From Acidobacteriota bacterium (GTDB lineage: Bacteria; Acidobacteriota; Thermoanaerobaculia; UBA5066), in NCBI GenBank assembly GCA_029781975.1, contig JAKOVQ010000014.1, forward strand, positions 283,864 to 347,863: DNA of 64,000 nt, given 5' to 3'. This document shows positions 6,440-19,879 of this stretch, piece by piece. Numbering within the stretch: the first letter of the stretch is position 1; each line of letters begins with the position of its first letter. The translations under genes and the position numbers were made by a program. The notes under the pieces are model-generated. The model was not told the origin of the DNA, ran no database searches, and saw only the letters and a program-made list of their open reading frames with translations.

Positions 6440-6460
6440 GCCGCTCCCCGGGCGGCTATT
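6440..6460. terminator. short GC hairpin (AGCCGC-N8-GCGGCT) between convergent thrC and FHA genes; candidate bidirectional terminator
   Basis: Inverted repeat read directly; no T-tract (common in high-GC genomes). Confidence 0.3.
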
Positions 6461-7145
6461 CCTTCTTCGTCCGGATCAGCATCAGGGTGGTGGCCCCGAT
6501 GTCGAACTCCGAGCGGTTGTCGAGCTCCACCTGCGAGATCCGGCGCTCGCCGACGTAGGTGCCGTTCGTCGACTGGAGGTCGATCAGGAAGACCCTGTCA
6601 TCCGCCACCTCGATGGCGGCGTGCTGCCGGGAGCACTCCGGGTCGTTCAGCGTGATGTCGGCGTTGGAGCGGCCCATCACCATCCGCGGACGGTCGAGCT
6701 CGAAGATCCGCCCCGCCTCGGGGCCCGCGATGCAGGCGAGGGAGAGCCGCTCACCGTCCGGGAGGCGGAGCCGGCGCTCCGGCGCCCCGGTCATGGTGCT
6801 CTTCGGCCGCTCGAACTCGGCGGTGCCGCTCCGGCCCGGGGAAGGGGGAGGCGGGGGCGGAGGAGGAGCCGCCCCGGGCTGGACGCCCGGCTTCGGGGGC
6901 CGCTTCCGCGGGCCGCCCCCCATCACGGTGGTGTCGAGGCTGAAGTCGTCCGATCCCAGGACGGGCCCCATCCCGGCCGTCTCGTCCGGCTGGAAGCCCG
7001 GCGGGGGCGGCGCGGAGACCGCAGGGTTCCGGATCTCGAAGATGGTCGCGCACTTCGTGCACCGGATCTTCTTCGCCGGGGCCCCGGCGAACCGGGCCTC
7101 GTCGTAGTGGTACCGCGTCCTGCACTCGGAGCACTGAATGATCAA
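6456..7145 (-). CDS. FHA-domain protein with N-terminal MJ0042-type zinc ribbon
   Basis: 229-aa ORF starting TTG (MIIQCSECRTRY...CTKC); Pro-rich linker; C-terminal FHA-like block (GR...DI.L.D..VSR.HA.I...D..F.L.DL.S.NGT.V). Confidence 0.7.
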   Translation of the reverse strand: MIIQCSECRTRYHYDEARFAGAPAKKIRCTKCATIFEIRNPAVSAPPPPGFQPDETAGMGPVLGSDDFSLDTTVMGGGPRKRPPKPGVQPGAAPPPPPPPPSPGRSGTAEFERPKSTMTGAPERRLRLPDGERLSLACIAGPEAGRIFELDRPRMVMGRSNADITLNDPECSRQHAAIEVADDRVFLIDLQSTNGTYVGERRISQVELDNRSEFDIGATTLMLIRTKKE

Positions 7146-7209
7146 GACGTCCCCCGCTGAGGCGCCGTTGCCTCCGTTTGGCCGATTAGAACCCGGCGGG
7201 CGCCCCCGA

Positions 7210-8385
7210 TCAAGCGCGACCTCCCGAGGCCCGGGAGACGAGCGCCGGGAGGAGCTCCAGGAGGCGGTCGACGTCCCTATCGGTTGAGCTCCAACCGAAA
7301 GAGAACCGCAGGGTGGCCCGGGCGTCGCCGGGCGAGAGGCCCAGGGCCAGGAGGACCCGGCTGGGCGCCGTCGACCCGGCCGCGCAGGCCGAGCCCGCCG
7401 AGGCGGCGACCCCTGCGAGGTCGAGGGCGGCCAGGAGGACCTCGCCGTCGGCGCCCGGGAAGGTGGCGGAGGTGACGGTCGGGAGCCGGTCCGCGGAGCC
7501 TCCCTCGCGGCCGTTGACCCTCGCCCCCGGGACCCGGGCCTCGAGGCCCGCCTCGAACCGGTCCCTCAGCCTCCTGACGGCGGCGGTCTCGGCGGCCATC
7601 CGGGCGGCGACGATCCCGGCCGCCGCGCCGAAGCCGACGATCGCCGCGACGTCCTCGGTCCCTCCCCGGCGGCCCCGCTCCTGGCCACCCCCCTTCTGCA
7701 GGGGGACGAGCTTCACCCCCCGTCTCACCCAGAGGGCGCCGGCCCCCTTCGGGCCGCCGAGCTTGTGGGCCGAGAGCGAGAGGAGGTCGACCCCGAGCGC
7801 CTCGACGTCGACCGGGACCTTCCCCACCGCCTGGACGGCGTCGGTGTGGACGACGACGCCCGCGCGACGCGCCCGCTCGGAGAGGGGCGGGAGCCCTCGG
7901 AAGACGACCCCGGTCTCGTTGCTCGCGAGGATCGCCGAGACGACCGCCGTCCCGCGGTCGAGGAACGCCTCGAGGGCGCCTTCCCGGGGGCGCCCGTTCC
8001 GGTCGACCGGGACCTCCGCCGGCTCGAGCCCGAGCGGTGAAAGGCCGAGGGCCGCCTCCCTCACCGAGGCGTGCTCGGCCGCCGTGACGACGACGCGCCG
8101 CCGCCCGGGGTCGGCCTCCCGCGCCGCGAGGGCGGCACCCCGCACCGCGAGGACGACGGACTCCGTCCCCCCCGAGGTGAAGACGATCTCCCGGGGGGAC
8201 GCTCCGACGAGCCGGGCGACCTTCTCCCGCGCCTCCTCCACGGCCCTGCGGGCCGCCCGGCCCGGGGCGTGGACCGACGACGGGTTGGCCGTCAGCCCCG
8301 TCAGCCACGGCAGCATCGCCTCGGTCACCTCGGGCCGGACGGGGGTCGTGGCGTGATGGTCGGCGTAGACGAGGGGGTCGGGCAC
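7210..8385 (-). CDS. cysteine desulfurase (NifS/IscS family, class V aminotransferase)
   Basis: GTG start at 8385 in frame of ORF 7210..11682; LVYADHHATTPV start, SAHKLGGPKG PLP-lysine motif, C-terminal active-site Cys loop (SAGSACAAGS). Confidence 0.85.
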   Translation of the reverse strand: MPDPLVYADHHATTPVRPEVTEAMLPWLTGLTANPSSVHAPGRAARRAVEEAREKVARLVGASPREIVFTSGGTESVVLAVRGAALAAREADPGRRRVVVTAAEHASVREAALGLSPLGLEPAEVPVDRNGRPREGALEAFLDRGTAVVSAILASNETGVVFRGLPPLSERARRAGVVVHTDAVQAVGKVPVDVEALGVDLLSLSAHKLGGPKGAGALWVRRGVKLVPLQKGGGQERGRRGGTEDVAAIVGFGAAAGIVAARMAAETAAVRRLRDRFEAGLEARVPGARVNGREGGSADRLPTVTSATFPGADGEVLLAALDLAGVAASAGSACAAGSTAPSRVLLALGLSPGDARATLRFSFGWSSTDRDVDRLLELLPALVSRASGGRA

Positions 8386-8487: not shown

Positions 8488-11400
8488 ATGGCCACCGGGA
8501 AGCTGAACCTGTCCCTCCGGAAGGCCTGGTGGGCCGCGGTGGCGCTCGCCTGTGCGCTTCCGGCGAGCGCAGCGCCTCGGACGGAGCCGGCGCCGGCCCC
8601 GGCGGCGGCCCCTCCGGCCGCCGCGACCCCCGCCACCCCGGCGACGTCCCTCGCCATCTCCCCCTCCCCCACCCCGGCGGCCTCTCCGGCGGCCGCTCCC
8701 CCCGCTCCCGCGGCGGCGCCCCCCGCGGCGCCGCCTGCTCCGGCGGACCCGGCCGTGGCCCGCCGCGCGGAGGCGCTGACCCTCTTCGGGTCGCTGGACG
8801 ACGACCGGGCGAAGGTCTTCCTTCGCTCCTCGCCTCCGGACGCCCGGAAGGTCGTCGACTGCCCGGACCTCTTCAAGCGCGTCGAGGTCTGGACCTACCT
8901 CCGCCACCCTCAGCTCGGGACGAACGCGCGGATCATCTTCTTCCCGGAGGCCGGGACGGGCGAGTACCGCTACTGGACCGTCCTCGAGGGAGAGTCGGTC
9001 CTCGTCTCCCCGAAGGCGGTCGTGGTCAAGCCGATCGCCGAGCTCGACCCGTCGGCCTACGGCTGCGCCGAGACCTCCCTCCTCCAGGCCGCGGTGAGCT
9101 CCATCTCCGCCCGCCAGGTCGACAACCAGGGAGGGCTGAAGGAGCGCGCCCTCCTCACGTTGGCCGACAGCAGCCTGGCTGCCGCCGCCGCTTCGGCCAC
9201 TTCGGCCACTTCGGCCACCTCGGCCACCTCGGCTACTTCGGCTACTTCGGCTACTTCGGCTACTTCGGCCACGACGGCCGCCGCGCCCGGAGCGGCTCCG
9301 GCCGCTTCCGGGCCGACCGCAGCCGCCGGGAGCGCGCCGCCGGGAGCGGGGGCCGTCGCGCCTCCGCCCGTCGTCCTCACCACCAAGCCCCTGAGCCGCG
9401 CCGAGCGCAAGAAGGCGCTCGCCGCACTGGGCGAGCGGTTCCGCCACTTCCTCGCGGACGTCGAGCCGATCATCACGGAGGAGGAGACGAACACCTTCCT
9501 CCGCCTCACGACCGACTACCAGAGGGACAAGTTCATCGACGAGTTCTGGAAGCGCCGGTCGAAGACGGAGGACGGCTTCGGGACTCCGTTCCGGGACGTC
9601 TACGAGGTGCGCCTGAGGTACGTCAGGGAGAAGTACCGCAACATCAACACCGACCAGGCGCGGATCTACCTGGTCAACGGGCCGCCCGACGCCGTCAAGC
9701 GGATCGACTGCCAGGACATCTACTACCCGATCGAGCTCTGGTTCTACGAGCGGATCGAGTCGCTCAAGATGAGCAAGGTCCTCCTCCTCTTCTACCAGCC
9801 GTTCGGGGCGGGGGACTACCAGCTCTGGTCGCCGATGGACGGGGCGCAGGCGCTGATCGTCGGCGGCATCGGGGGGATGGCGGGGGCCTCCGTGGGGCGC
9901 CGCGTCGACATCACGCGCTGCCAGGAGTGGCGCGAGATCCAGGGGGCGATCAGCGCCATGACCGGGCAGTTCGGGACGGCGACCGCCGGCGTCTACACCG
10001 AGAAGCTCCGGACCGGCCCCAAGCCCGACGTCGAGGGGGTGGACCAGATCCTCCTGATGACGACCGACATCGCGCCGGGGACGAAGACGATCCCCGTCCA
10101 GCGCGTCATCCGCTTCCCCGAGATGGACGCCAGCAAGATCCGGATGGAGATCGGGCTCGTCCTCGAGCGCGCCTCGCTCGGGACGAAGGCGCTGGGCGAG
10201 GAGAAGTTCTACGACGTGGACGTCGTGGGCGAGGTGGTCAAGGACGGCCGGCTCATGGACAACTTCCGGTACCGGTTCGACTTCCCCGCCTCCACGGTGA
10301 AGGGGGACTTCCTGCCGGTGACGGTCGAGCGGAGCCTCTACCCGGGCACGTACGAGGTGAAGCTCAAGGTCGCCGACGCGAACCAGAACGCCGCTTCCCT
10401 CCTCGACGAGAAGGTGACCGTCCCGGAGGTCCCGGACCTCTCGATGACCCCCGAGGAGAAGGCCGCGCGGGAGACGGCGCGCAAGGCCCTGTCGAGCCTC
10501 GTCGCCGACTCGGGCCCGAAGGGCTCGCTGACGCTCGTCCCGCTCGCGCGCGAGTTCGCCACGGGCCTCGTCCGCTTCGAGACGCAGGCGACCTCCTCGG
10601 ACATCGCCTCGGTGGAGTTCTACCTCAACGGCCAGCGGATCGTGACCAAGCGGCGCCCCCCCTTCGACGCCGACCTCGACCTCGGCGACCTCCCGCGCAA
10701 GCAGATCGTCAAGGTGATGGGGTACGCGAAGGACGGGCGGCTCGTCGCGCAGGACGACATGGTCCTGAACGAGGGGCGCGAGGCGTTCCGGGTCCGGATC
10801 ACCTCGCCGCCGAAGGGAGCGAACGTCTCGGGGCCCACCCGCGTCGTCGCCGACGTGGCGCATCCCGAGTCGCGCAAGCTCCAGAAGGTCGACTTCTACG
10901 TCAACGAGACGAAGGCCGTGACGCTCGCCAAGCCCCCGTTCACGGCCGTCGTCGACGTCCCCCCGTCGAAGGACATCGGCTTCCTCCGCGTCGTCGCCAC
11001 CCTGGAGGACGGCGGCACCACCGAGGACCTCCGGTACATCAACGCCCCGAAGTACCTCTCGGAGGTCGACGTCCAGGCGGTGGAGCTCTACACCTCGGTC
11101 TTCGCGAAGGGGCGCCCCGTGACCGGGCTGACGAAGGCGAACTTCAGCGTCCTGGAGGACGGCGTCCCGCAGACCGTCGACGGGTTCGAGGTCGTCACCA
11201 ACCTCCCGCTCTCGGTCGGCATCGCCGTCGACACCTCGGGGTCGATGGAGGAGTCGATCGTCGAGGCCCAGAAGGCCGCGACCCAGTTCCTCAAGTCGGT
11301 GATGACCCCGCGCGACCGCGCCTTCCTCGTCACCTTCGACAACGAGCCGCAGCTGATCACCCGCTTCACGACCGACCGCGACCGGATCGCCCAGGCCCTC

Positions 11401-11853
11401 GCGGGCCTCCGGCCGCAGGGGTCCACGGCCCTCTGGGACGCCGTGGTCTACGGCCTCTACCAGTTCCAGGGGGCGCGCGGGCGGAAGGCGTACGTGATCC
11501 TCACCGACGGCGAGGACCGCTCGTCGAAGTTCACCTACGAGGCCGCCCTCGACTACGCCCGCAAGTCCGGCGTCGCGATCTACTTCATCGGCCTGAGGAT
11601 CGCCGGGACCCAGTTCGAGGTGCGGACGAAGCTCAACAGGATGGCGCGCGAGACGGGCGGCACCGCGTACTACATCGACCACGCCAGCAAGCTGCAGGGG
11701 ATCTACGACGAGATCGACCAGGAGCTCCGGAGCCAGTACCTCCTGACGTACCAGCCGGCGAACCGCAAGCCGGGCTCCAAGTGGCGGAAGATCGACGTCA
11801 GGATGACCCCCGACAACCTCACCGCCCGGACCATCAGCGGCTACTACCCCTGA
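8488..11853 (+). CDS. secreted GWxTD-domain protein with C-terminal von Willebrand factor A (VWA) domain
   Basis: ATG 8488 in frame of ORF 8071..11853; signal peptide, Pro/Ala-rich linker, GWxTD-like repeats (YRYWTVLEG, YQLWSPMDG), C-terminal VWA with DTSGSM MIDAS motif. Confidence 0.72.
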   Translation: MATGKLNLSLRKAWWAAVALACALPASAAPRTEPAPAPAAAPPAAATPATPATSLAISPSPTPAASPAAAPPAPAAAPPAAPPAPADPAVARRAEALTLFGSLDDDRAKVFLRSSPPDARKVVDCPDLFKRVEVWTYLRHPQLGTNARIIFFPEAGTGEYRYWTVLEGESVLVSPKAVVVKPIAELDPSAYGCAETSLLQAAVSSISARQVDNQGGLKERALLTLADSSLAAAAASATSATSATSATSATSATSATSATSATTAAAPGAAPAASGPTAAAGSAPPGAGAVAPPPVVLTTKPLSRAERKKALAALGERFRHFLADVEPIITEEETNTFLRLTTDYQRDKFIDEFWKRRSKTEDGFGTPFRDVYEVRLRYVREKYRNINTDQARIYLVNGPPDAVKRIDCQDIYYPIELWFYERIESLKMSKVLLLFYQPFGAGDYQLWSPMDGAQALIVGGIGGMAGASVGRRVDITRCQEWREIQGAISAMTGQFGTATAGVYTEKLRTGPKPDVEGVDQILLMTTDIAPGTKTIPVQRVIRFPEMDASKIRMEIGLVLERASLGTKALGEEKFYDVDVVGEVVKDGRLMDNFRYRFDFPASTVKGDFLPVTVERSLYPGTYEVKLKVADANQNAASLLDEKVTVPEVPDLSMTPEEKAARETARKALSSLVADSGPKGSLTLVPLAREFATGLVRFETQATSSDIASVEFYLNGQRIVTKRRPPFDADLDLGDLPRKQIVKVMGYAKDGRLVAQDDMVLNEGREAFRVRITSPPKGANVSGPTRVVADVAHPESRKLQKVDFYVNETKAVTLAKPPFTAVVDVPPSKDIGFLRVVATLEDGGTTEDLRYINAPKYLSEVDVQAVELYTSVFAKGRPVTGLTKANFSVLEDGVPQTVDGFEVVTNLPLSVGIAVDTSGSMEESIVEAQKAATQFLKSVMTPRDRAFLVTFDNEPQLITRFTTDRDRIAQALAGLRPQGSTALWDAVVYGLYQFQGARGRKAYVILTDGEDRSSKFTYEAALDYARKSGVAIYFIGLRIAGTQFEVRTKLNRMARETGGTAYYIDHASKLQGIYDEIDQELRSQYLLTYQPANRKPGSKWRKIDVRMTPDNLTARTISGYYP
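9189..9272 (+). repeat. In-frame 9-bp tandem repeat (ACYTCGGCY x9) encoding (SAT)n inside the GWxTD/VWA gene
   Basis: Read directly: cttcggccacttcggccacttcggccacctcggccacctcggctacttcggctacttcggctacttcggctacttcggcc. Confidence 0.9.
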
Positions 11854-11876
11854 CCGGGTAGGCCCCCCGCTCCCCG

Positions 11877-12752
11877 TTGGCTATCCTCCGGCCGAAGGGG
11901 AGGCGGATGAAGGCTCGGACGCTCGGCCTGACGGCGGCGGCGATGGGGTGCTTCGCCGCGAACTCGCTCCTCTGCCGCGCGGCGCTGGCGCCGCGGCTCG
12001 TCGACCCCGCGAGCTTCACGAGCCTCCGGCTCCTGTCGGGCGCGCTGGCCCTCGCCCTCCTCGTCCGGCTGACGGGCCGCCGGTCGGGCGGCACGCGGGA
12101 CCTGCGCGCCGCCGGCGTGCTCTTCGCCTACGCCCTCGCCTTCTCGCTCGCCTACGTGAGGATCCCGGCGGCCCTCGGCGCGCTCCTCCTGTTCGGCGCC
12201 GTCCAGCTGACGATGGTCGGCCGGGGGGTCGCAATGGGCGAGCGCCCGGCCCCCGCGGAGTGGGCCGGCCTCGTCCTCTCGGTCTCGGGCCTCGTCGCGC
12301 TGACCGTCCCGGGCCTTCGCCACGGCGACCCCGCGGGAGCCCTCCTGATGATCGGCGCCGGCGTCGCCTGGGGCGTCTACTCGCTCCTCGGCCGGTCGAG
12401 CCGCGGGGACCCGCTGGCCACGAACGCGGTCCACTTCGCGCACGCGGTGCCGCTCGCCCTCGTCGCGAGCGGCGTCTCGGCCCTCCATGCTGCTCCCCGT
12501 CTCTCCGCCGGGGGGATCGCCCTCGCCGTGGCGTCGGGCGCCCTCGCCTCGGGCGGGGGCTACGCGATCTGGTACGCGGCGCTCCGGGGCCTCACGGCGA
12601 CGCGGGCCGCCCTCGTGCAGCTCTCCGTCCCGCCCCTCGCCGCCCTCGGAGGGGTCGCCCTCCTCGGCGAGGTGGTGACGCTCCGGCTCGCCCTCTCGGC
12701 CCTCGCGATCCTCGGCGGGATCGCGCTCGCGGTCACGTCCCGGCGGGCCTGA
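11877..12752 (+). CDS. EamA/DMT-family transporter (10 TM helices); true start may be ATG 11907
   Basis: 291-aa hydrophobic ORF with two EamA-like halves; overlaps convergent gene end by about 20 nt. Confidence 0.72.
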   Translation: MAILRPKGRRMKARTLGLTAAAMGCFAANSLLCRAALAPRLVDPASFTSLRLLSGALALALLVRLTGRRSGGTRDLRAAGVLFAYALAFSLAYVRIPAALGALLLFGAVQLTMVGRGVAMGERPAPAEWAGLVLSVSGLVALTVPGLRHGDPAGALLMIGAGVAWGVYSLLGRSSRGDPLATNAVHFAHAVPLALVASGVSALHAAPRLSAGGIALAVASGALASGGGYAIWYAALRGLTATRAALVQLSVPPLAALGGVALLGEVVTLRLALSALAILGGIALAVTSRRA

Positions 12753-13302
12753 GACCGGGCTCGCCCGTCCCCGGCGAGACCGGAGGCCGGATCGCGCTCT
12801 TCGGCCACGACAGGCCCGAGAGCTGCTCGCTCACCGTCCCGAACGACAGCCTGCACGGGAGCGAGACGAGCCAGGGACCCCGCACGGCGGCGTCCCCGCC
12901 GAGCTCGGGCCGGACGCGCCGGAGGAGCCGGTCGGCCTCCTCCGGCGTCCGGGCGATACCCGCCGAGAGCGGCGCCTCCACGAGCGCCGGGCGATAGCCC
13001 TTCTCAGAGAGCACGCGTCCCGGGTCGGCTCCCCTCCCCGTCCCGGCGACGCGGAAGGCCGGGACCCAGACCCACGGGCCGCCGGTCGGCCCCGTCTCGA
13101 ACGCGTAGAAGGCGAGTCGCGGCCCGTCGTCTCCGCCCGTCCCCTCCGGGCGGTAGGTCGCCATCCTCGCCGCGGGCTGCGCGAAGGGGTCGAACGCGAG
13201 AGGGCAGCGGTCGCACGACATCCAGGGGACCCCCGGGGCGCCCCGGAGCGGCCGGCCGCAGTCCGGGCAGAGGCGGAGGACGACGAGGAGCCGGGCGCTC
13301 AC
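12733..13302 (-). CDS. zinc-ribbon protein, paralog C (soluble, truncated member of the A/B/C family)
   Basis: GTG start at 13302 in frame of ORF 12733..14232, 2 nt after the stop of paralog B; N-terminal CPDCG...CDRC ribbon; shares WVWVPAF / PWLVSLP segments with A and B. Confidence 0.5.
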   Translation of the reverse strand: MSARLLVVLRLCPDCGRPLRGAPGVPWMSCDRCPLAFDPFAQPAARMATYRPEGTGGDDGPRLAFYAFETGPTGGPWVWVPAFRVAGTGRGADPGRVLSEKGYRPALVEAPLSAGIARTPEEADRLLRRVRPELGGDAAVRGPWLVSLPCRLSFGTVSEQLSGLSWPKSAIRPPVSPGTGEPGLRPAGT

Positions 13303-13304
13303 GC

Positions 13305-14270
13305 CTACTCCAGGACCTGGGCCACGCTCCGGGCCGTCGAGAAGAAGCCGTCGCGGACCCTCTCGGGAAGGGTCCGGGGCGGGCGGTTCACCGCCTGGCT
13401 GCGGACGTCGCCCCCTTCGCGGACCCACTCGGTGCGGAACCTCAGCCGGTCCCACGCGAACGCCAGGATCCAGACGACGACGCCGGGGAGCCCGATCGTC
13501 CCGACGATGCCGGCGGCGAAGTGGAGGTCGAAGAGGAACGCGATCACCCTCCACCACCACGAGAGCGGCATGGAGAGGACGAAGGCGAAGAGGTAGACGA
13601 GGAGGACCACCTCGTGGAGCCGGGCCGTCCGTTCCATCGGGGCGCGTCCCGAGAAGACGACGCCGCTCGTCGCGTCGACGACGGCCTCGTAGAGGTTGCG
13701 GTCGTGGCGCCCCCTCACGAGCCAGAGCGGGAGCCAGACGAGCGTCGTCCGCTCCTCCACGACCTCTCCGGGCGGCCCCTTGCCGCCGTCGCGGACGACC
13801 TCGTCCGGGTCGAGGACGACCGCGCGACGCTGGAGCGAGGCGGCGTCGAAGCTCTCGCGCGTCCCGCGCCCGATCGCTCCCAGGGCGTCGAAGCGCGCCA
13901 GCGGCACGTCGGGCGGGTCGGCGGCCGGGGCGAGCGAGAGGTGGCCGACGAGCGTCGCGCCTCCTCCCTCCTTCACGAGCGCCGTCCTCGCCACCTCCCG
14001 GAACGGGACGAAGAGGAGGAGCGCCTCGACGGCGTCGCCCACGAGGAAGGTCTTCGGCACCGCCCGGCCCTCCCACGACGCCCGGACGGCCGCGACGGCC
14101 TGCTCGCGGTCCACGGAGGGCGCGATCGCCTCCCTCAGGGGCGCGTCCTCCACCAGGACCGCGAGCGGCGAGGCGCAGGCGGGGCAGTCGAGGAACGTCG
14201 AGGAGAGGACGCCGCGCAGCGGCCCGCCGCACTGGGGGCAGGCCAGGGCTTGCGCTCGCGGCGCCGTCAC
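13305..14270 (-). CDS. zinc-ribbon membrane protein, paralog B
   Basis: GTG start 14270 overlaps stop of paralog A (GTGA); N-terminal CPQCGG...CPAC; conserved LLLFVPF and LVWLPLWLV...DATSG blocks; three C-terminal TM helices. Confidence 0.6.
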   Translation of the reverse strand: MTAPRAQALACPQCGGPLRGVLSSTFLDCPACASPLAVLVEDAPLREAIAPSVDREQAVAAVRASWEGRAVPKTFLVGDAVEALLLFVPFREVARTALVKEGGGATLVGHLSLAPAADPPDVPLARFDALGAIGRGTRESFDAASLQRRAVVLDPDEVVRDGGKGPPGEVVEERTTLVWLPLWLVRGRHDRNLYEAVVDATSGVVFSGRAPMERTARLHEVVLLVYLFAFVLSMPLSWWWRVIAFLFDLHFAAGIVGTIGLPGVVVWILAFAWDRLRFRTEWVREGGDVRSQAVNRPPRTLPERVRDGFFSTARSVAQVLE

Positions 14271-15010
14271 CGCGCCTCCGAGAGCCGGATGACGGCCCAG
14301 GCCACGAGCCAGAAGAGCGGCCCGGCGACCGCCAGCACCACGGCCCCGCGGACCCACGTCGCGCCGAACCCGCCGAAGAGGCACCTCACGCCGTAGGCGG
14401 CGACGGCGAACAGGAGCGTCGCGAGGACCGCGTAGGTGACGTCGAGGCGCCGCTCGGAGGTGGGGGGAAGGGAGAAGTCGAGCGGCTGGCCCGAGGCCGC
14501 GTCGAACCAGACCTCGTAGCTGCGGTCGAAGAGGGCGAACCGGACCCGGCGGAACGGGACGTGCAGCAGGCGGACGCTGGCGCGGGCTTCGTCGGGAAGG
14601 TCGAGGCTCTCCGGCCGGACCGACGCCGGGACCACCTCGCCGCCCCGCGCGGCTCCCGCGTCGAACGCCTTGCGGTCGCCGGCCGGGAGCTTGAACGAGG
14701 CGAGGTTGCTCGCCAGGAGCGGCGCCGCGGGGACGACGGCGGAGCCGGGTAGGAGGAAGAACGGGAACCAGACGAGCCCGCTCGCCACCTCCCGCGGGTC
14801 CGCGGTCACCTCCCGGTCCCGGAGCCAGCGCGACAGGCTCGCCCGCGCCTCCTCGTCGGAGAGGACCGGGACGAGCATCTGGTGCCCGACCGCCTCCTCC
14901 TCGCCCAGGTGGAGGCGCGACCCGCACGACGCGCACGTCGCGAACGCGCCGTCCTCCTCCAGGACGAGCCGGCCTCCGCAGCGCGGGCACGCGGGGGCAT
15001 CGTTGGACAT
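14267..15010 (-). CDS. zinc-ribbon membrane protein, paralog A
   Basis: ATG 15010; N-terminal CPRCGG...CASCGS; GLVWFPFFLL and LLHVPFRRVRF...DAASG blocks collinear with paralog B; two C-terminal TM helices. Confidence 0.6.
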   Translation of the reverse strand: MSNDAPACPRCGGRLVLEEDGAFATCASCGSRLHLGEEEAVGHQMLVPVLSDEEARASLSRWLRDREVTADPREVASGLVWFPFFLLPGSAVVPAAPLLASNLASFKLPAGDRKAFDAGAARGGEVVPASVRPESLDLPDEARASVRLLHVPFRRVRFALFDRSYEVWFDAASGQPLDFSLPPTSERRLDVTYAVLATLLFAVAAYGVRCLFGGFGATWVRGAVVLAVAGPLFWLVAWAVIRLSEAR

Positions 15011-15022
15011 CGAAGGGAGATT

Positions 15023-15610
15023 CTAGGCCCGGACGGGGGCCGCCGGGGCGGGGCCGGGGCGTCCCGCCGGGCGATCGGGCGCGAGGAGGTCGCGGATCTG
15101 GCCGACGGTCGTGACGTTCCGGAAGGTGGCGGGGAGACGGAGGGCCTTCTCGATCCTCCCCGGCAGCGCGATCGACTTCGGCGACCTCTCGCGGCAGAGC
15201 CAGTGGACCTCCCGGCCGTGGACGGCGAGGAGGTCGTTCGCGCCGGCGAGCCCCAGGACCGCGCGGGCCTGGTCGGGTGACAACGGCTCCTTCAGGAAGC
15301 CGACGTAGAGGGCGTGCGCCGCCGCCGCGTCGGCGGCCGGGAAGGGCTGGCGCGCGGCGATCGCCTCGACCTCGGCCCGCGTCCGGAGGAAGGCGGCCAC
15401 CTCGAAGCCGAGGGCCTTCCCGAGCGCCGTCTCGATCTTCCTCTCGAGGTCCCCGGCCCTCCCTCGAGCCGCCGTGAAGAGGACGTTTCCGCTGGCGATG
15501 TGGGTCGAGACGCCGGAGAAGCCGATCTCCGAGAAGAGGACGCGCAGGCGGTCCATCTTCACGACGCGGCCCCCGACGTTGACGGCGCGGAGGAAGGCGA
15601 CGGAGCGCAT
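15023..15610 (-). CDS. DUF1697-family protein
   Basis: 195-aa ORF starting MRSVAFLRAVNVGG, characteristic of the DUF1697 family; 12 nt upstream of the zinc-ribbon trio on the same strand. Confidence 0.65.
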   Translation of the reverse strand: MRSVAFLRAVNVGGRVVKMDRLRVLFSEIGFSGVSTHIASGNVLFTAARGRAGDLERKIETALGKALGFEVAAFLRTRAEVEAIAARQPFPAADAAAAHALYVGFLKEPLSPDQARAVLGLAGANDLLAVHGREVHWLCRERSPKSIALPGRIEKALRLPATFRNVTTVGQIRDLLAPDRPAGRPGPAPAAPVRA

Positions 15611-15709
15611 GGCGGGAGATTACCCGTCCGGCCGTGGCGGGGGCCGGGGGCGGAAACCCGCGGCGGGCAGGCTGCGTAAGATCCGCGCAACCAGAGAGGA
15701 GGTCCCCCG

Positions 15710-16525
15710 ATGTCCGAGAGAACGGAGCTCCTGCCCGGCTCGTTCTGCTGGCCCGAGCTCGCCACCCCCGACATGGCGTCCGCGAAACGGTTCTACGCCG
15801 GCCTCTTCGGCTGGGAGCCCGTCGACGTTCCCTCGGCCGGGGGGAGCTACACGCTCCTGCAGCTCCGGGGGAAGGACGTGGCGGGACTCCGGAGCCTGAG
15901 CCGGGAGGAGCGCGACGGCGGGATCCCCGCCCACTTCCTGACGTACGTTTCCACGGCGTCGGCGGACGCCTCCGCCGCGCGCGCGCAGGAGCTCGGCGGG
16001 AGCGTCCTCGCCGGGCCGTTCGACGTCGAGGGGATCGGCCGGATGGCGGTGCTCCGCGACCCGGGCGGCGTCGTCTTCGCGCTCTGGGAGGCGCGCGGCC
16101 ACATCGGGGCGCGCCTCGTCGGCGAGGAGAGCACCCTCTGCTGGACGGAGCTCGTCACGCGGGACCCGTCCGGCGCGAAGGCGTTCTACGGAGGCCTCTT
16201 CGGCTGGACCTGGAAGGCTTCGGAGGGAGCCCCGGCGGGCTACACGGAGATCTCCCGCGAGGCGCAGCCGATCGGCGGGCTCCTCCCGATGGAAGGCCCG
16301 GAGTGGGGCGACGTCCCGCCCCACTTCATGCCGTACTTCCTCGTGGCCGACTGCGACGCCGCGGCGTCGCGCGCGGCGGGGCTGGGCGGATCAGCCGTCG
16401 TGCCGCCGACGGACATCCCGAACGTCGGGCGCTTCGCGCGCCTCCGCGACCCGGCGGGGGCCGCCTTCTCGGTCATCTCGATGGCCGCGATGGCCGCGAT
16501 GGCCGCCACGCCCGCGGCCACCTGA
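15710..16525 (+). CDS. VOC-family (glyoxalase/bleomycin-resistance-like) protein with two tandem domains
   Basis: 271-aa ORF with two repeated halves (FGW...V.LRDP.G..F.L); C-terminal MAAMAAMAA. Confidence 0.72.
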   Translation: MSERTELLPGSFCWPELATPDMASAKRFYAGLFGWEPVDVPSAGGSYTLLQLRGKDVAGLRSLSREERDGGIPAHFLTYVSTASADASAARAQELGGSVLAGPFDVEGIGRMAVLRDPGGVVFALWEARGHIGARLVGEESTLCWTELVTRDPSGAKAFYGGLFGWTWKASEGAPAGYTEISREAQPIGGLLPMEGPEWGDVPPHFMPYFLVADCDAAASRAAGLGGSAVVPPTDIPNVGRFARLRDPAGAAFSVISMAAMAAMAATPAAT

Positions 16526-17808: not shown

Positions 17809-18429
17809 GTGACAAGAACGCCGCCCCGCAGCGTCTTCTCTACGATGGACGCCGTGGCTGCCGCCGCCGGGATCCCGATCCCCGCCCGGGAGGAGTCGTG
17901 GGGGGACGCCCTCCGCGCCCCGTTCGCGGCTCTGGCGGCCGGAGACGTGTCGGCCCTCGAGACGGTCTGGGAGATCGCCTCGCGGCGCCTCTACGGCCTC
18001 GCCCTCTGGCGGACGGGGTGCGCGGAGGACGCGCGAGACGTCGTCCAGGAGGTCTTCGTGAGGCTCGCCAGCCGCCGGCACGAGCTGGGCGCCGTCGCCT
18101 CGCCGCACGTCTGGCTCCTCGCCGTGGCGCACCACGCCGCGGTGGACGTGGCGCGCCGCCGATCGCGTCGGCGGACCGGGCCGCTCGAGGATGCCGCCCA
18201 CGTCGCCGCGCCCGCCGGCGAGCCCGAGCGGGCCGTCGAGGCCTCGCGGCTGTCCCTCCTCCTCGCCCGGCTCCCCGCCGCGCAGCGCGAAGCGGTCTCC
18301 CTCCGGCACGTGGCCGGCTGCTCGCTTCGCGAGGTCGCGGCGATCACGGGAGTCCCCCTCTTCACCGCCGCGAGCCGGTGCCGGCTCGGCCTCGCGCGCC
18401 TGCGCCGGATGATGGAAGGATCCCGATGA
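17809..18429 (+). CDS. ECF-subfamily RNA polymerase sigma-70 factor
   Basis: 206-aa ORF with sigma region 2 (DVVQEVFVRL) and region 4 HTH (REAVSLRHVAGCSLREVAAITG). Confidence 0.8.
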   Translation: MTRTPPRSVFSTMDAVAAAAGIPIPAREESWGDALRAPFAALAAGDVSALETVWEIASRRLYGLALWRTGCAEDARDVVQEVFVRLASRRHELGAVASPHVWLLAVAHHAAVDVARRRSRRRTGPLEDAAHVAAPAGEPERAVEASRLSLLLARLPAAQREAVSLRHVAGCSLREVAAITGVPLFTAASRCRLGLARLRRMMEGSR

Positions 18430-18794
18430 GCGACGCCCCTCCCGACCCCGACCTCTCCGCCCTCGAGCCGCCGCCCCCGCCGCCCGGCCTGCGCGAGGCC
18501 GCGCTCTCGGCCGCGAGGGCCGCGCTCGCCTCCACGCCCGCAGCCGCGCCCGCGCCCGACCTCTGGACACGGCTCCTCGCGAGCCCGGCGGCGCGCCTCG
18601 CCTGGGCCGCCGCGGTCGCCCTCCTCGTCGCGGCCAACGTCCTCCTCCCGTCTCCCGGGCGTAGCCCGGCTTCCGCAGCTTCTTCATCGACCACGACGGC
18701 CGCCTCCTCCCCCGACCCGGAGCTGGCCACCATCGCGCGGCTCCCGCGCATCGACGACCGCTCGCTCCCCCCCCTACCCGGAGGCCCGTCATGA
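18426..18794 (+). CDS. putative single-pass anti-sigma factor (Pro-rich N-terminus, one TM helix)
   Basis: ATG 18426 overlaps sigma stop (ATGA); 122 aa; TM segment LAWAAAVALLVAANVLL; genomic context. Confidence 0.5.
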   Translation: MSDAPPDPDLSALEPPPPPPGLREAALSAARAALASTPAAAPAPDLWTRLLASPAARLAWAAAVALLVAANVLLPSPGRSPASAASSSTTTAASSPDPELATIARLPRIDDRSLPPLPGGPS

Positions 18795-19879
18795 ACCGCT
18801 CCCGCACGATCGTCCTCGCCGCCGTCGCCCTCGTCGTCCTCCTCGCCGGCACGCTCGGAGTCCGGCTCCTGGGACGGGAGACTGCGAGCGCTTCGAAGCC
18901 TGCCCCCGCGCGCCTCGCGCGGTTCGAAGGGGCGCCGCTCCCCGCGAGGGTGCCGGATCCGAAGCCGGCCGCATCGCTGTCCGTCCCCTGCTGGGGCTGC
19001 CCCGGGAGCGACGGCTGGCCCGTGAGGTTCCGGACCGACCTCGACCTCCTCGCCCCTCTCGGCGACGGCGAAGGGAACGCGGCGCTCTGGCTGAAGGACT
19101 TTGCGAGGCAGGTCGGAGCGCGCGAGGCCGAGGTCGACGCGGCGATGAAGCGCCGCGTCGACGCTCCGGGGGGCCTCGGCAAGGTCCTCCCGGCCGACGA
19201 CCCGATCCTCCTGGAGGCCGAGCCGTGGGCCGACCGGGCGACGATGCGCTTCTACCCGGACGTCTTCCCGATCGAGGGGTTCGAGACCCGGATCCCCAAC
19301 CTCCTCCTCTCGCTGACGCTCGCGAAGTCGTGGGTGGCCCGGGCGGCGGCGCATCCGGGCTCCGCGACGGCGGTCGAGGACTGCCGGCGCTCCATCCGCT
19401 GGGGCCGGCTCCTCCGCCAGGACGACACGACCGTCATCCAGGACCTCGTCGGGCTCGCCTGCATCCGGATCGGCGCCCAGGGGCTCTACGACCTCGCGGC
19501 GCGTCGCGGGGACCAGCCCCTGATGCTCGTCTCGGCCATCGTCCTCGGCGAGCACGCGCCCCAGCGGCTGCGGACGGCCCAGGTCATGACGAAGCTCGAC
19601 GTGATCGGGGCCGCGGGCAGCGCCGAGGTGACCGACCGGAAGGTCGACGACGCCGTCTCGACGGCGACCGGCTCCCCGGACCGCCGCTTCCGCGGGGAGG
19701 CGATCCTCCAGCTGGCGATCGTCCGCTCCGCGGGAAGCTCCGCCCAGCGGAGCCGGGCGGAGAAGGTCCTCGACGAGCTCGCGGCCTCCCCGGATCCCGT
19801 GACCTCGGCGTGCGCCCGCTGGGCGCCCGCCGCGAAGCTGGGCCCCGGGGAGCTCGAGAAGCTCGCCGGTCCGGACTGA
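18791..19879 (+). CDS. hypothetical exported protein, third gene of the ECF sigma operon
   Basis: ATG 18791 overlaps anti-sigma stop (ATGA); N-terminal signal/TM helix; 362 aa. Confidence 0.55.
   Translation: MNRSRTIVLAAVALVVLLAGTLGVRLLGRETASASKPAPARLARFEGAPLPARVPDPKPAASLSVPCWGCPGSDGWPVRFRTDLDLLAPLGDGEGNAALWLKDFARQVGAREAEVDAAMKRRVDAPGGLGKVLPADDPILLEAEPWADRATMRFYPDVFPIEGFETRIPNLLLSLTLAKSWVARAAAHPGSATAVEDCRRSIRWGRLLRQDDTTVIQDLVGLACIRIGAQGLYDLAARRGDQPLMLVSAIVLGEHAPQRLRTAQVMTKLDVIGAAGSAEVTDRKVDDAVSTATGSPDRRFRGEAILQLAIVRSAGSSAQRSRAEKVLDELAASPDPVTSACARWAPAAKLGPGELEKLAGPD

Follow-up and report, generated by a model that had tools for sequence, protein, structure and literature searches.

What are the three small zinc-ribbon genes, here called A, B and C, that follow one another on the minus strand of a 64,000-nucleotide (nt) stretch of an Acidobacteriota contig (JAKOVQ010000014.1; the whole stretch is called the window below), and do they belong with the DUF1697 gene that precedes them? 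The original prediction took all three for paralogues that had duplicated in place behind DUF1697, and it could assign their architecture to no known family. Here, we propose that A and B are very probably members of the family of Bacillus subtilis YdjG, and that A, B and C make up an old, translationally coupled module, the order of which is kept across several bacterial lineages and to which DUF1697 does not belong. The genes are laid out as follows, with lengths in amino acids (aa).

15023-15610, minus strand: DUF1697 gene, 195 aa, ATG start
14267-15010, minus strand: gene A, 247 aa, ATG start; probable A-type YdjG-like protein with a zinc ribbon, a YpeB/PepSY-like alpha/beta domain and a predicted two-helix C-terminal membrane hairpin
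14267-14270, minus strand: GTGA overlap of the A stop codon (TGA) and the B start codon (GTG), read directly from the sequence
13305-14270, minus strand: gene B, 321 aa, GTG start; probable YdjG-like paralogue of the B type, with an alpha/beta domain that carries a longer insert and with a predicted membrane hairpin
12733-13302, minus strand: gene C, 189 aa, GTG start; soluble zinc-ribbon protein, third member of the trio

The sequence confirms four co-directional genes in the order DUF1697, A, B, C, with junctions of 12 nt, a 4-nt overlap and 2 nt. The predicted linkage by GTGA overlaps stands at the junction of A and B but not at that of B and C, where there is a 2-nt gap (relatives usually have 4-nt overlaps at both junctions), and B is one residue shorter than the 322 originally given.

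Probable membership of A and B in the YdjG family

The B. subtilis pspA-ydjGHI operon, part of the sigma-W regulon, encodes YdjI, which has a Band_7_1 domain and a C-terminal ribbon, and the membrane protein YdjG, in which the ribbon is N-terminal (PMC9239133). The domain make-up of YdjG has been described as a zinc ribbon, a YpeB-related domain and a membrane anchor (PMC11237479). For comparison with A and B, the operon was recovered from a metagenome contig by means of a published ydjG primer sequence (PMC8581546).

Three kinds of comparison connect YdjG with the window proteins. By profile alignment, YdjG matched both the profile of distant A-type proteins (hhalign 98.0%, E 2e-13, 82 columns) and that of the window clade (hhalign 95.8%, E 6.5e-9, 90 columns). 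An hmmsearch hit YdjG with 57.9 bits; one piece of the match lies on the extra first ribbon of YdjG and two others are collinear, the first of these covering the second ribbon, a helix and the 'YIPFW' strand and the second covering 'LLPVWMVSYDY...NGQTGKVVGKPP' and the membrane helix (the C-terminal beta-hairpin region). The E-value of this search refers to a database of five sequences, and by our own scaling to 1.8 billion sequences it would come near 1e-10. Finally, in tblastn, YdjG residues 49-337, which is nearly the whole protein, align with the B-type gene of another locus. The ribbon region of A and B aligns with the second ribbon of YdjG, and the profile of the distant A-type alignment (A4, below) runs through its membrane helix. 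A and B have the features of the family: an N-terminal four-cysteine ribbon, a YpeB-related alpha/beta domain collinear with YdjG and a C-terminal membrane anchor. On the strength of the hhalign, hmmsearch and tblastn results we place A and B in the YdjG family with high confidence, with YdjG itself closest in sequence to the B type, and we set aside the statement that the architecture fits no known family.

Several differences from YdjG count against our reading. Sequence identity of A and B to YdjG is below 20-25%, and where A and B have one ribbon and two-helix hairpins, YdjG has a second ribbon and a single membrane helix. The operon partners differ as well: YdjG shares its operon with PspA, YdjH (a TPM-domain protein) and YdjI (an SPFH protein), while the window has the paralogue pair A and B with the soluble C instead, and tblastn with B. 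subtilis PspA, YdjH and YdjI found no match in the window or in the acidobacterial-type loci described below. Because pspA, ydjH and ydjI were not found there, the membership is one of protein family and not of the PspA-Ydj system. YdjI-type SPFH proteins (Band_7_1 with a C-terminal ribbon) adjoin YdjG-family genes in B. subtilis and in the related locus L021/L022 and are themselves ribbon-bearing, but none of A, B and C has the SPFH domain of YdjI.

How, then, do A and B stand to better-known alpha/beta domains? PepSY domains are usually extracytoplasmic, and the alpha/beta domain of A and B, unlike these, is predicted to be cytoplasmic. The resemblance to YpeB, YpmB and PepSY domains is structural only, and in A and B the domain is split by an insert of 60-125 residues. 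The Pfam PepSY model (PF03413) matched none of A, B, C and ten distant relatives, and a Foldseek search of the PDB with the model of A gave nothing below E 0.2. Among PDB sequences, a profile search picked out nothing but ribbon proteins, RpoP and LysW for example. When A, B, C and distant relatives were scanned against Pfam, NCBIfam and PADLOC, the matches were all of the generic zinc-ribbon kind, and the names of sequence clusters ('hypothetical', 'LSD1 zinc finger', 'RpoP') are uninformative. A literature search for the combination of a zinc ribbon with PepSY found nothing relevant.

Domain features of A, B and C and paralogy of A and B

The ribbons and membrane segments of the three proteins are located as follows.

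14924-14989, minus strand: zinc ribbon of A (CPRCG...CASCG, residues 8-29; C8/C11/C26/C29), four cysteines invariant in alignments A2 and A4
14175-14240, minus strand: zinc ribbon of B (CPQCG...CPAC, residues 11-32; C11/C14/C29/C32), from the joint A+B alignment and the sequence
13204-13269, minus strand: zinc ribbon of C (CPDCG...CDRC, residues 12-33; C12/C15/C30/C33), four cysteines invariant in alignments A3 and A5
14273-14458, minus strand: predicted membrane hairpin of A, residues 185-246 (AlphaFold2 (AF2) helices 185-211 and 219-246; hydropathy peaks 2.0-2.4)
13449-13628, minus strand: hydrophobic membrane segments of B, residues ~215-274 (Kyte-Doolittle peaks 1.8-2.1), aligned with the hairpin of A

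Each protein does open with a four-cysteine ribbon, as originally noted, of the pattern CPxCG, about 14-17 residues, CxxC; that of A has a weak Pfam match to Zn_Ribbon_TF (E 3.8e-4). The four cysteines are invariant in close A-type relatives (alignment A2), distant A-type proteins (A4) and the C family (A5). When 17 A-type and 14 B-type proteins are aligned together, the second cysteine pair is invariant and the first nearly so, one N-terminally truncated row being included. The prediction that A and B end in two to three transmembrane helices and that C is soluble is borne out for A, which has two helices, and for C, which has no hydrophobic segment (maximum Kyte-Doolittle 19-residue mean 0.89); the segments of B we read, from hydropathy and the alignment with A, as two helices and not three. 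The loop between the two helices of A is about 7 residues long, and after its second helix B has a conserved basic tail, NRPxRTLPExVRDG, which is predicted to be cytoplasmic.

Are the three proteins paralogues? A and B match in BLASTP from the ribbon through the membrane helices (E 7e-7, 27% identity over 275 residues), and their joint alignment has 12 invariant columns, including the second cysteine pair, the proline of both aromatic-proline blocks and the D...G of the 'DAxSG' turn. By these comparisons A and B are true full-length paralogues. In contrast, the BLASTP match of C to A and B is confined to the ribbon, and profile comparison extends it no further than the stretch that follows the ribbon, both with close relatives (hhalign 90% over 39 columns) and for a broader C alignment against distant A-type proteins (hhalign 96.4%, E 1e-9, 46 columns). 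From sequence comparison, then, C demonstrably shares only the ribbon module with A and B, so that of the three paralogues originally proposed two stand in full length and the third in its ribbon.

The same division applies to the two collinear aromatic-proline blocks that had been assigned to all three proteins, which align between A and B. Three strands kept in the C family resemble the blocks of A and B: 'LPF(W/Y)xF', which follows the ribbon, 'YVPAF' and, late in the protein, 'LxxVP(F/C)'. Counterparts in C are plausible, if not demonstrable. The pairing originally chosen for the first block, 'WVWVPAF', is uncertain, and 'RLAFYAF', which takes the LPFWxF position, is a candidate at least as good. 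As for the timing, the A/B duplication is real but was not a local event: since distant lineages already have distinct A and B types, the duplication is ancient.

A pair of histidines sets the A type apart, one in an HxxxxP motif after the ribbon (H43, ~14882-14884) and one in an LxHxP motif of the beta-hairpin (H150, ~14561-14563). Both are invariant in the close relatives of A, and in the distant set the second remains almost so; B-type proteins have arginine and tryptophan in their place. Judged by this pattern, the pair may be a metal site or an active site specific to A.

Conservation of the A-B-C trio

Word-based searches returned 21 clusters related to A (53-65% identity), 15 related to B (39-57%) and 2 related to C, none with a Pfam domain or a useful name, and a genome scan located close relatives in Thermoanaerobaculia, Holophagales and other Acidobacteriota metagenome-assembled genomes (MAGs). 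We collected 12 acidobacterial-type loci, 7 of them from named Thermoanaerobaculia, Holophagales or Acidobacteriota MAGs, with flanks of at most 6-8 kb per side and several contigs shorter than that. As far as the contigs reach, A, B and C are consecutive and on one strand in all 12, and wherever a related locus reaches far enough past B, a homologue of C comes next.

The family is far larger than this set. With clusters drawn at 50% identity, an exhaustive joint A+B profile search returned 2732 of them within E<=1e-3; under the stricter limit of E<=1e-10 there were 501. The best 150 of the 2732 fall into two size classes, one near 245 aa and one of about 350-400 aa; an N-terminal CxxC pair is present in nearly all of these, and C-terminal membrane helices are predicted for most. 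Ten distant family members matched no Pfam family beyond generic ribbon types. For the distant members whose surroundings were inspected on long enough contigs, the same three-gene order was found every time, with the following lengths of the first, second and third protein.

249-373-216 aa
253-364-201 aa, beside yacP-dnaG-rpoD in a 7.6-Mb genome
243-364-206 aa
271-356-180 aa
244-362-208 aa
268-397-211 aa
266-604-320 aa and 259-606-389 aa, two tandem trios in an Anaerolineae MAG (L016, 797-8847)

In the distant trios, adjoining genes either overlap, by as much as 22 nt, or lie a few nt apart, with a single wide exception of 55 nt (from A to B in locus L017), and the third genes of five of these trios align with C. 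The order A-B-C thus recurs in Acidobacteriota, in a Chloroflexota MAG and in other lineages, and the trio holds up as a conserved unit, as had been proposed. In the Anaerolineae MAG the B-type proteins are of about 605 aa; in the one inspected (P0169, 604 aa) there are about five hydrophobic segments and a further CxxC pair, and one protein in the C position carries several ribbons and a DUF3592 domain.

The surroundings of the trio are less constant. Upstream of A the genes vary by lineage and include those for an M61 peptidase, a Ser/Thr kinase and PMT_2, HD, methyltransferase and Band_7_1 proteins; in some acidobacterial-type loci nothing upstream is shared. Downstream of C, several acidobacterial-type loci, L001/L004 among them, have a convergent gene for a B12-binding radical-SAM protein and a gene for a UppS-like prenyltransferase, which were found neither in the window nor in the distant lineages.

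Coding signal, DUF1697 and the surrounding genes

Could A, B and C be spurious open reading frames (ORFs)? The window is 75% G+C and long ORFs fill all six frames, so that ORF length alone proves nothing. G+C at third codon positions (GC3), however, is 0.94-0.97 specifically in the proposed frames (B 0.97, C 0.94), with the high-GC3 phase switching exactly at the gene borders, and conservation at the protein level reaches low-GC genomes, which bears out the expected coding signal. A mobile or defence island would be another way to account for the genes, but the genes around the trio are housekeeping genes with no relation to it (FHA-ZnR, class-V aminotransferase, VWA, EamA, glyoxalase, Maf, extracytoplasmic function (ECF) sigma and patatin). 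Searches of plasmid and phage collections by tblastn gave no match, and PADLOC models matched no window protein, proteins of the related locus L013 giving only ribbon noise (E 0.035-0.057). With no PADLOC match below E 0.03, a defence island was rejected, and we give spurious ORFs and a mobile or defence island together practically no chance of being right.

Does the trio work with DUF1697? The assignment of that gene is clear (Pfam PF08002, E 2.3e-34, 119.2 bits against a gathering cut-off of 24.4). If it were the centre of a four-gene unit, the ribbon proteins would serve it, for example as a membrane tether or as assembly factors, and the arrangement in the window suits this idea: DUF1697 lies on the same strand, 12 nt before A, no terminator-like site was found between them, and the two are probably co-transcribed in this genome. 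The relatives tell a different story. With the window's DUF1697, EamA and glyoxalase genes as queries, tblastn found no match in the fetched flanks of any of the 12 related loci, and the Pfam-annotated distant trios have no DUF1697. Since these loci lack DUF1697 and the genes upstream of A differ between lineages, the adjacency is local and DUF1697 lies outside the conserved module; the association named in the original prediction is not shared by the related loci, and a unit centred on DUF1697 is very unlikely.

At its other end the trio meets a convergent gene for an EamA transporter (11877-12752, plus strand), the 3' end of which overlaps that of C by 20 nt (12733-12752). This leaves no room for a terminator between C and EamA, and a promoter and terminator scan of 12500-15900 gave no match. 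Three further neighbours were noted. At 6456-7145 (minus strand), beside the class-V aminotransferase gene, a 229-aa protein fuses an MJ0042-type ribbon (Zn_ribbon_4), a different kind of ribbon, to an FHA domain. At 8488-11853 (plus strand) lies a protein of about 1121 aa with VWA and Big_7 domains, the ORF translation of which shows SAT/ATS tripeptide repeats in the N-terminal part. At 17809-19879 (plus strand) an ECF-type sigma gene (17809-18429, 206 aa) is followed by a gene for a 362-aa protein without a Pfam match, which could be the anti-sigma partner of that sigma factor; in the Pfam-annotated loci of other genomes this pair showed no linkage to the trio.

A possible role at the membrane

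What might A, B and C do together? The literature on YdjG offers a guide. In B. subtilis, the soluble SPFH protein YdjI and PspA are no longer recruited to the membrane and form no foci once ydjG or ydjH is deleted; YdjG and YdjH interact, and the mutants have cell-shape defects under alkaline shock (PMC8581546). The need for YdjG in this recruitment, and induction by stress, are known from experiments in B. subtilis only. Two of the sampled trios also lie beside SPFH genes. In L021/L022 a gene with Band_7_1 (E 6.6e-70) and a double zinc ribbon (6892-7989) lies on the same strand as the A-type gene and stops 11 nt short of it; its product shares 28% identity with YdjI of B. subtilis, and this is the only sampled trio with a YdjI-like gene. 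At the P0067 locus (genes at 9872-14794) three consecutive Band_7 genes and NfeD stand immediately downstream of the trio in convergent orientation.

Guided by these observations, we infer the following arrangement. In A as in B, the ribbon and the alpha/beta domain would face the cytoplasm, anchored by a membrane hairpin whose helices are joined by some 7 residues, so that both termini of each protein would be cytoplasmic; this orientation is suggested because ribbons need reduced cysteines, no signal peptide is present and the tail of B is strongly basic. The tight gene junctions suggest that A, B and C would be co-expressed in fixed proportions. A and B may then assemble into a hetero-oligomeric platform at the cytoplasmic side of the membrane that docks the soluble C and perhaps also binds SPFH or PspA-type proteins encoded elsewhere, in the service of membrane or envelope maintenance. 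A membrane-tethered assembly factor set, one of two functions originally suggested, fits the YdjG literature; the other, a sensor, does not agree with the predicted proteins, in which a loop of some 7 residues outside the membrane means that there is no extracytoplasmic sensing domain. By analogy with YdjG, we regard a scaffold or membrane-maintenance role for the trio as tentative, somewhat short of an even chance. The account as a whole (ancient YdjG-family paralogues A and B, a conserved and coupled trio, and a platform that docks C for membrane or envelope maintenance) seems to us evenly poised between right and wrong.

A related but distinct option is that A and B are membrane-tethered regulators, that is, anti-sigma-like or DNA-binding ribbon proteins that are released or controlled at the membrane. 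The N-terminal ribbon, predicted to be cytoplasmic, is of TFIIB type, a regulatory part for the YdjG ribbon has been speculated on (PMC9239133), and the ECF sigma gene of the window (17809-18429) is only 2.2 kb away. That gene, however, is on the other strand, three genes apart, and absent from the other Pfam-annotated loci. The ribbon is spaced CxxC-17-CxxC, without the HxxxCxxC anti-sigma motif and without a zf-HC2 match, the short inter-helix loop leaves no extracytoplasmic sensing domain, and Pfam and NCBIfam scans gave no match to a helix-turn-helix or sigma-binding family. We consider regulators of this kind improbable. A zinc-binding anti-sigma factor (ZAS) in the strict sense was rejected, as neither the motif, nor an adjacent co-transcribed ECF sigma gene, nor a sensing domain was found.

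The platform proposed above has its own difficulties. The link to SPFH and PspA rests on 2 of about 9 sampled lineages and B. subtilis, and most sampled trios have no SPFH or PspA gene nearby. The A type keeps two histidines that are absent from B, a pattern that may mark a function of its own, and an AF2 model of C from a two-sequence alignment was unusable (predicted local distance difference test (pLDDT) 36). Some of these points would be better explained if the trio were an autonomous membrane complex that shares only domain ancestry with YdjG and works without SPFH or PspA proteins. The B. subtilis operon has neither a C-type protein nor an A/B pairing, and the histidines that are conserved in A-type proteins and replaced in B hint at a specific site in the A type. 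Against this, a member of the family stands beside an SPFH gene three times over (YdjI in B. subtilis, L021/L022 and the P0067 locus), and 2 of 9 loci with SPFH genes is beyond chance expectation by our own rough estimate (~0.01). An autonomous complex is a serious alternative, if on the unlikely side.

Significance

Until now the YdjG family has been known only through its one B. subtilis member and a brief description of its domains, and it has no Pfam or NCBIfam model. In the literature searched we found no description of the PspA-free A-B-C trio, of its conserved order or of its spread across lineages. Of the components of the PspA/SPFH machinery for membrane stress in Bacillus, YdjG is one of those understood least, and it is placed here, at the confidence given above, in a large family (2732 clusters at 50% identity), the usual form of which outside Firmicutes is a fixed three-gene module. 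At the same time, the association with DUF1697 is removed as a false lead.

For the biology of these bacteria, A, B and C become a concrete unit of study, probably of fixed stoichiometry, and the idea of a platform on the cytoplasmic face, to which soluble partners are brought from the cell interior, is one that can be tested. There is a further, rather doubtful prospect: the trio might be an ancient, PspA-independent complex beneath the membrane, made of two tail-anchored YdjG-like paralogues and a soluble ribbon subunit, which carries out an undescribed membrane or envelope task in lineages known mainly from metagenomes. If so, its tasks may include coupling cell-wall synthesis to the state of the membrane, or a catalytic or metal role for the A-type histidines. 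The findings are of use in annotation and in research on how bacteria maintain their membranes, though they are no categorical surprise, and the alignments provide material for a new family model, which would allow the annotation of thousands of 'hypothetical proteins'.

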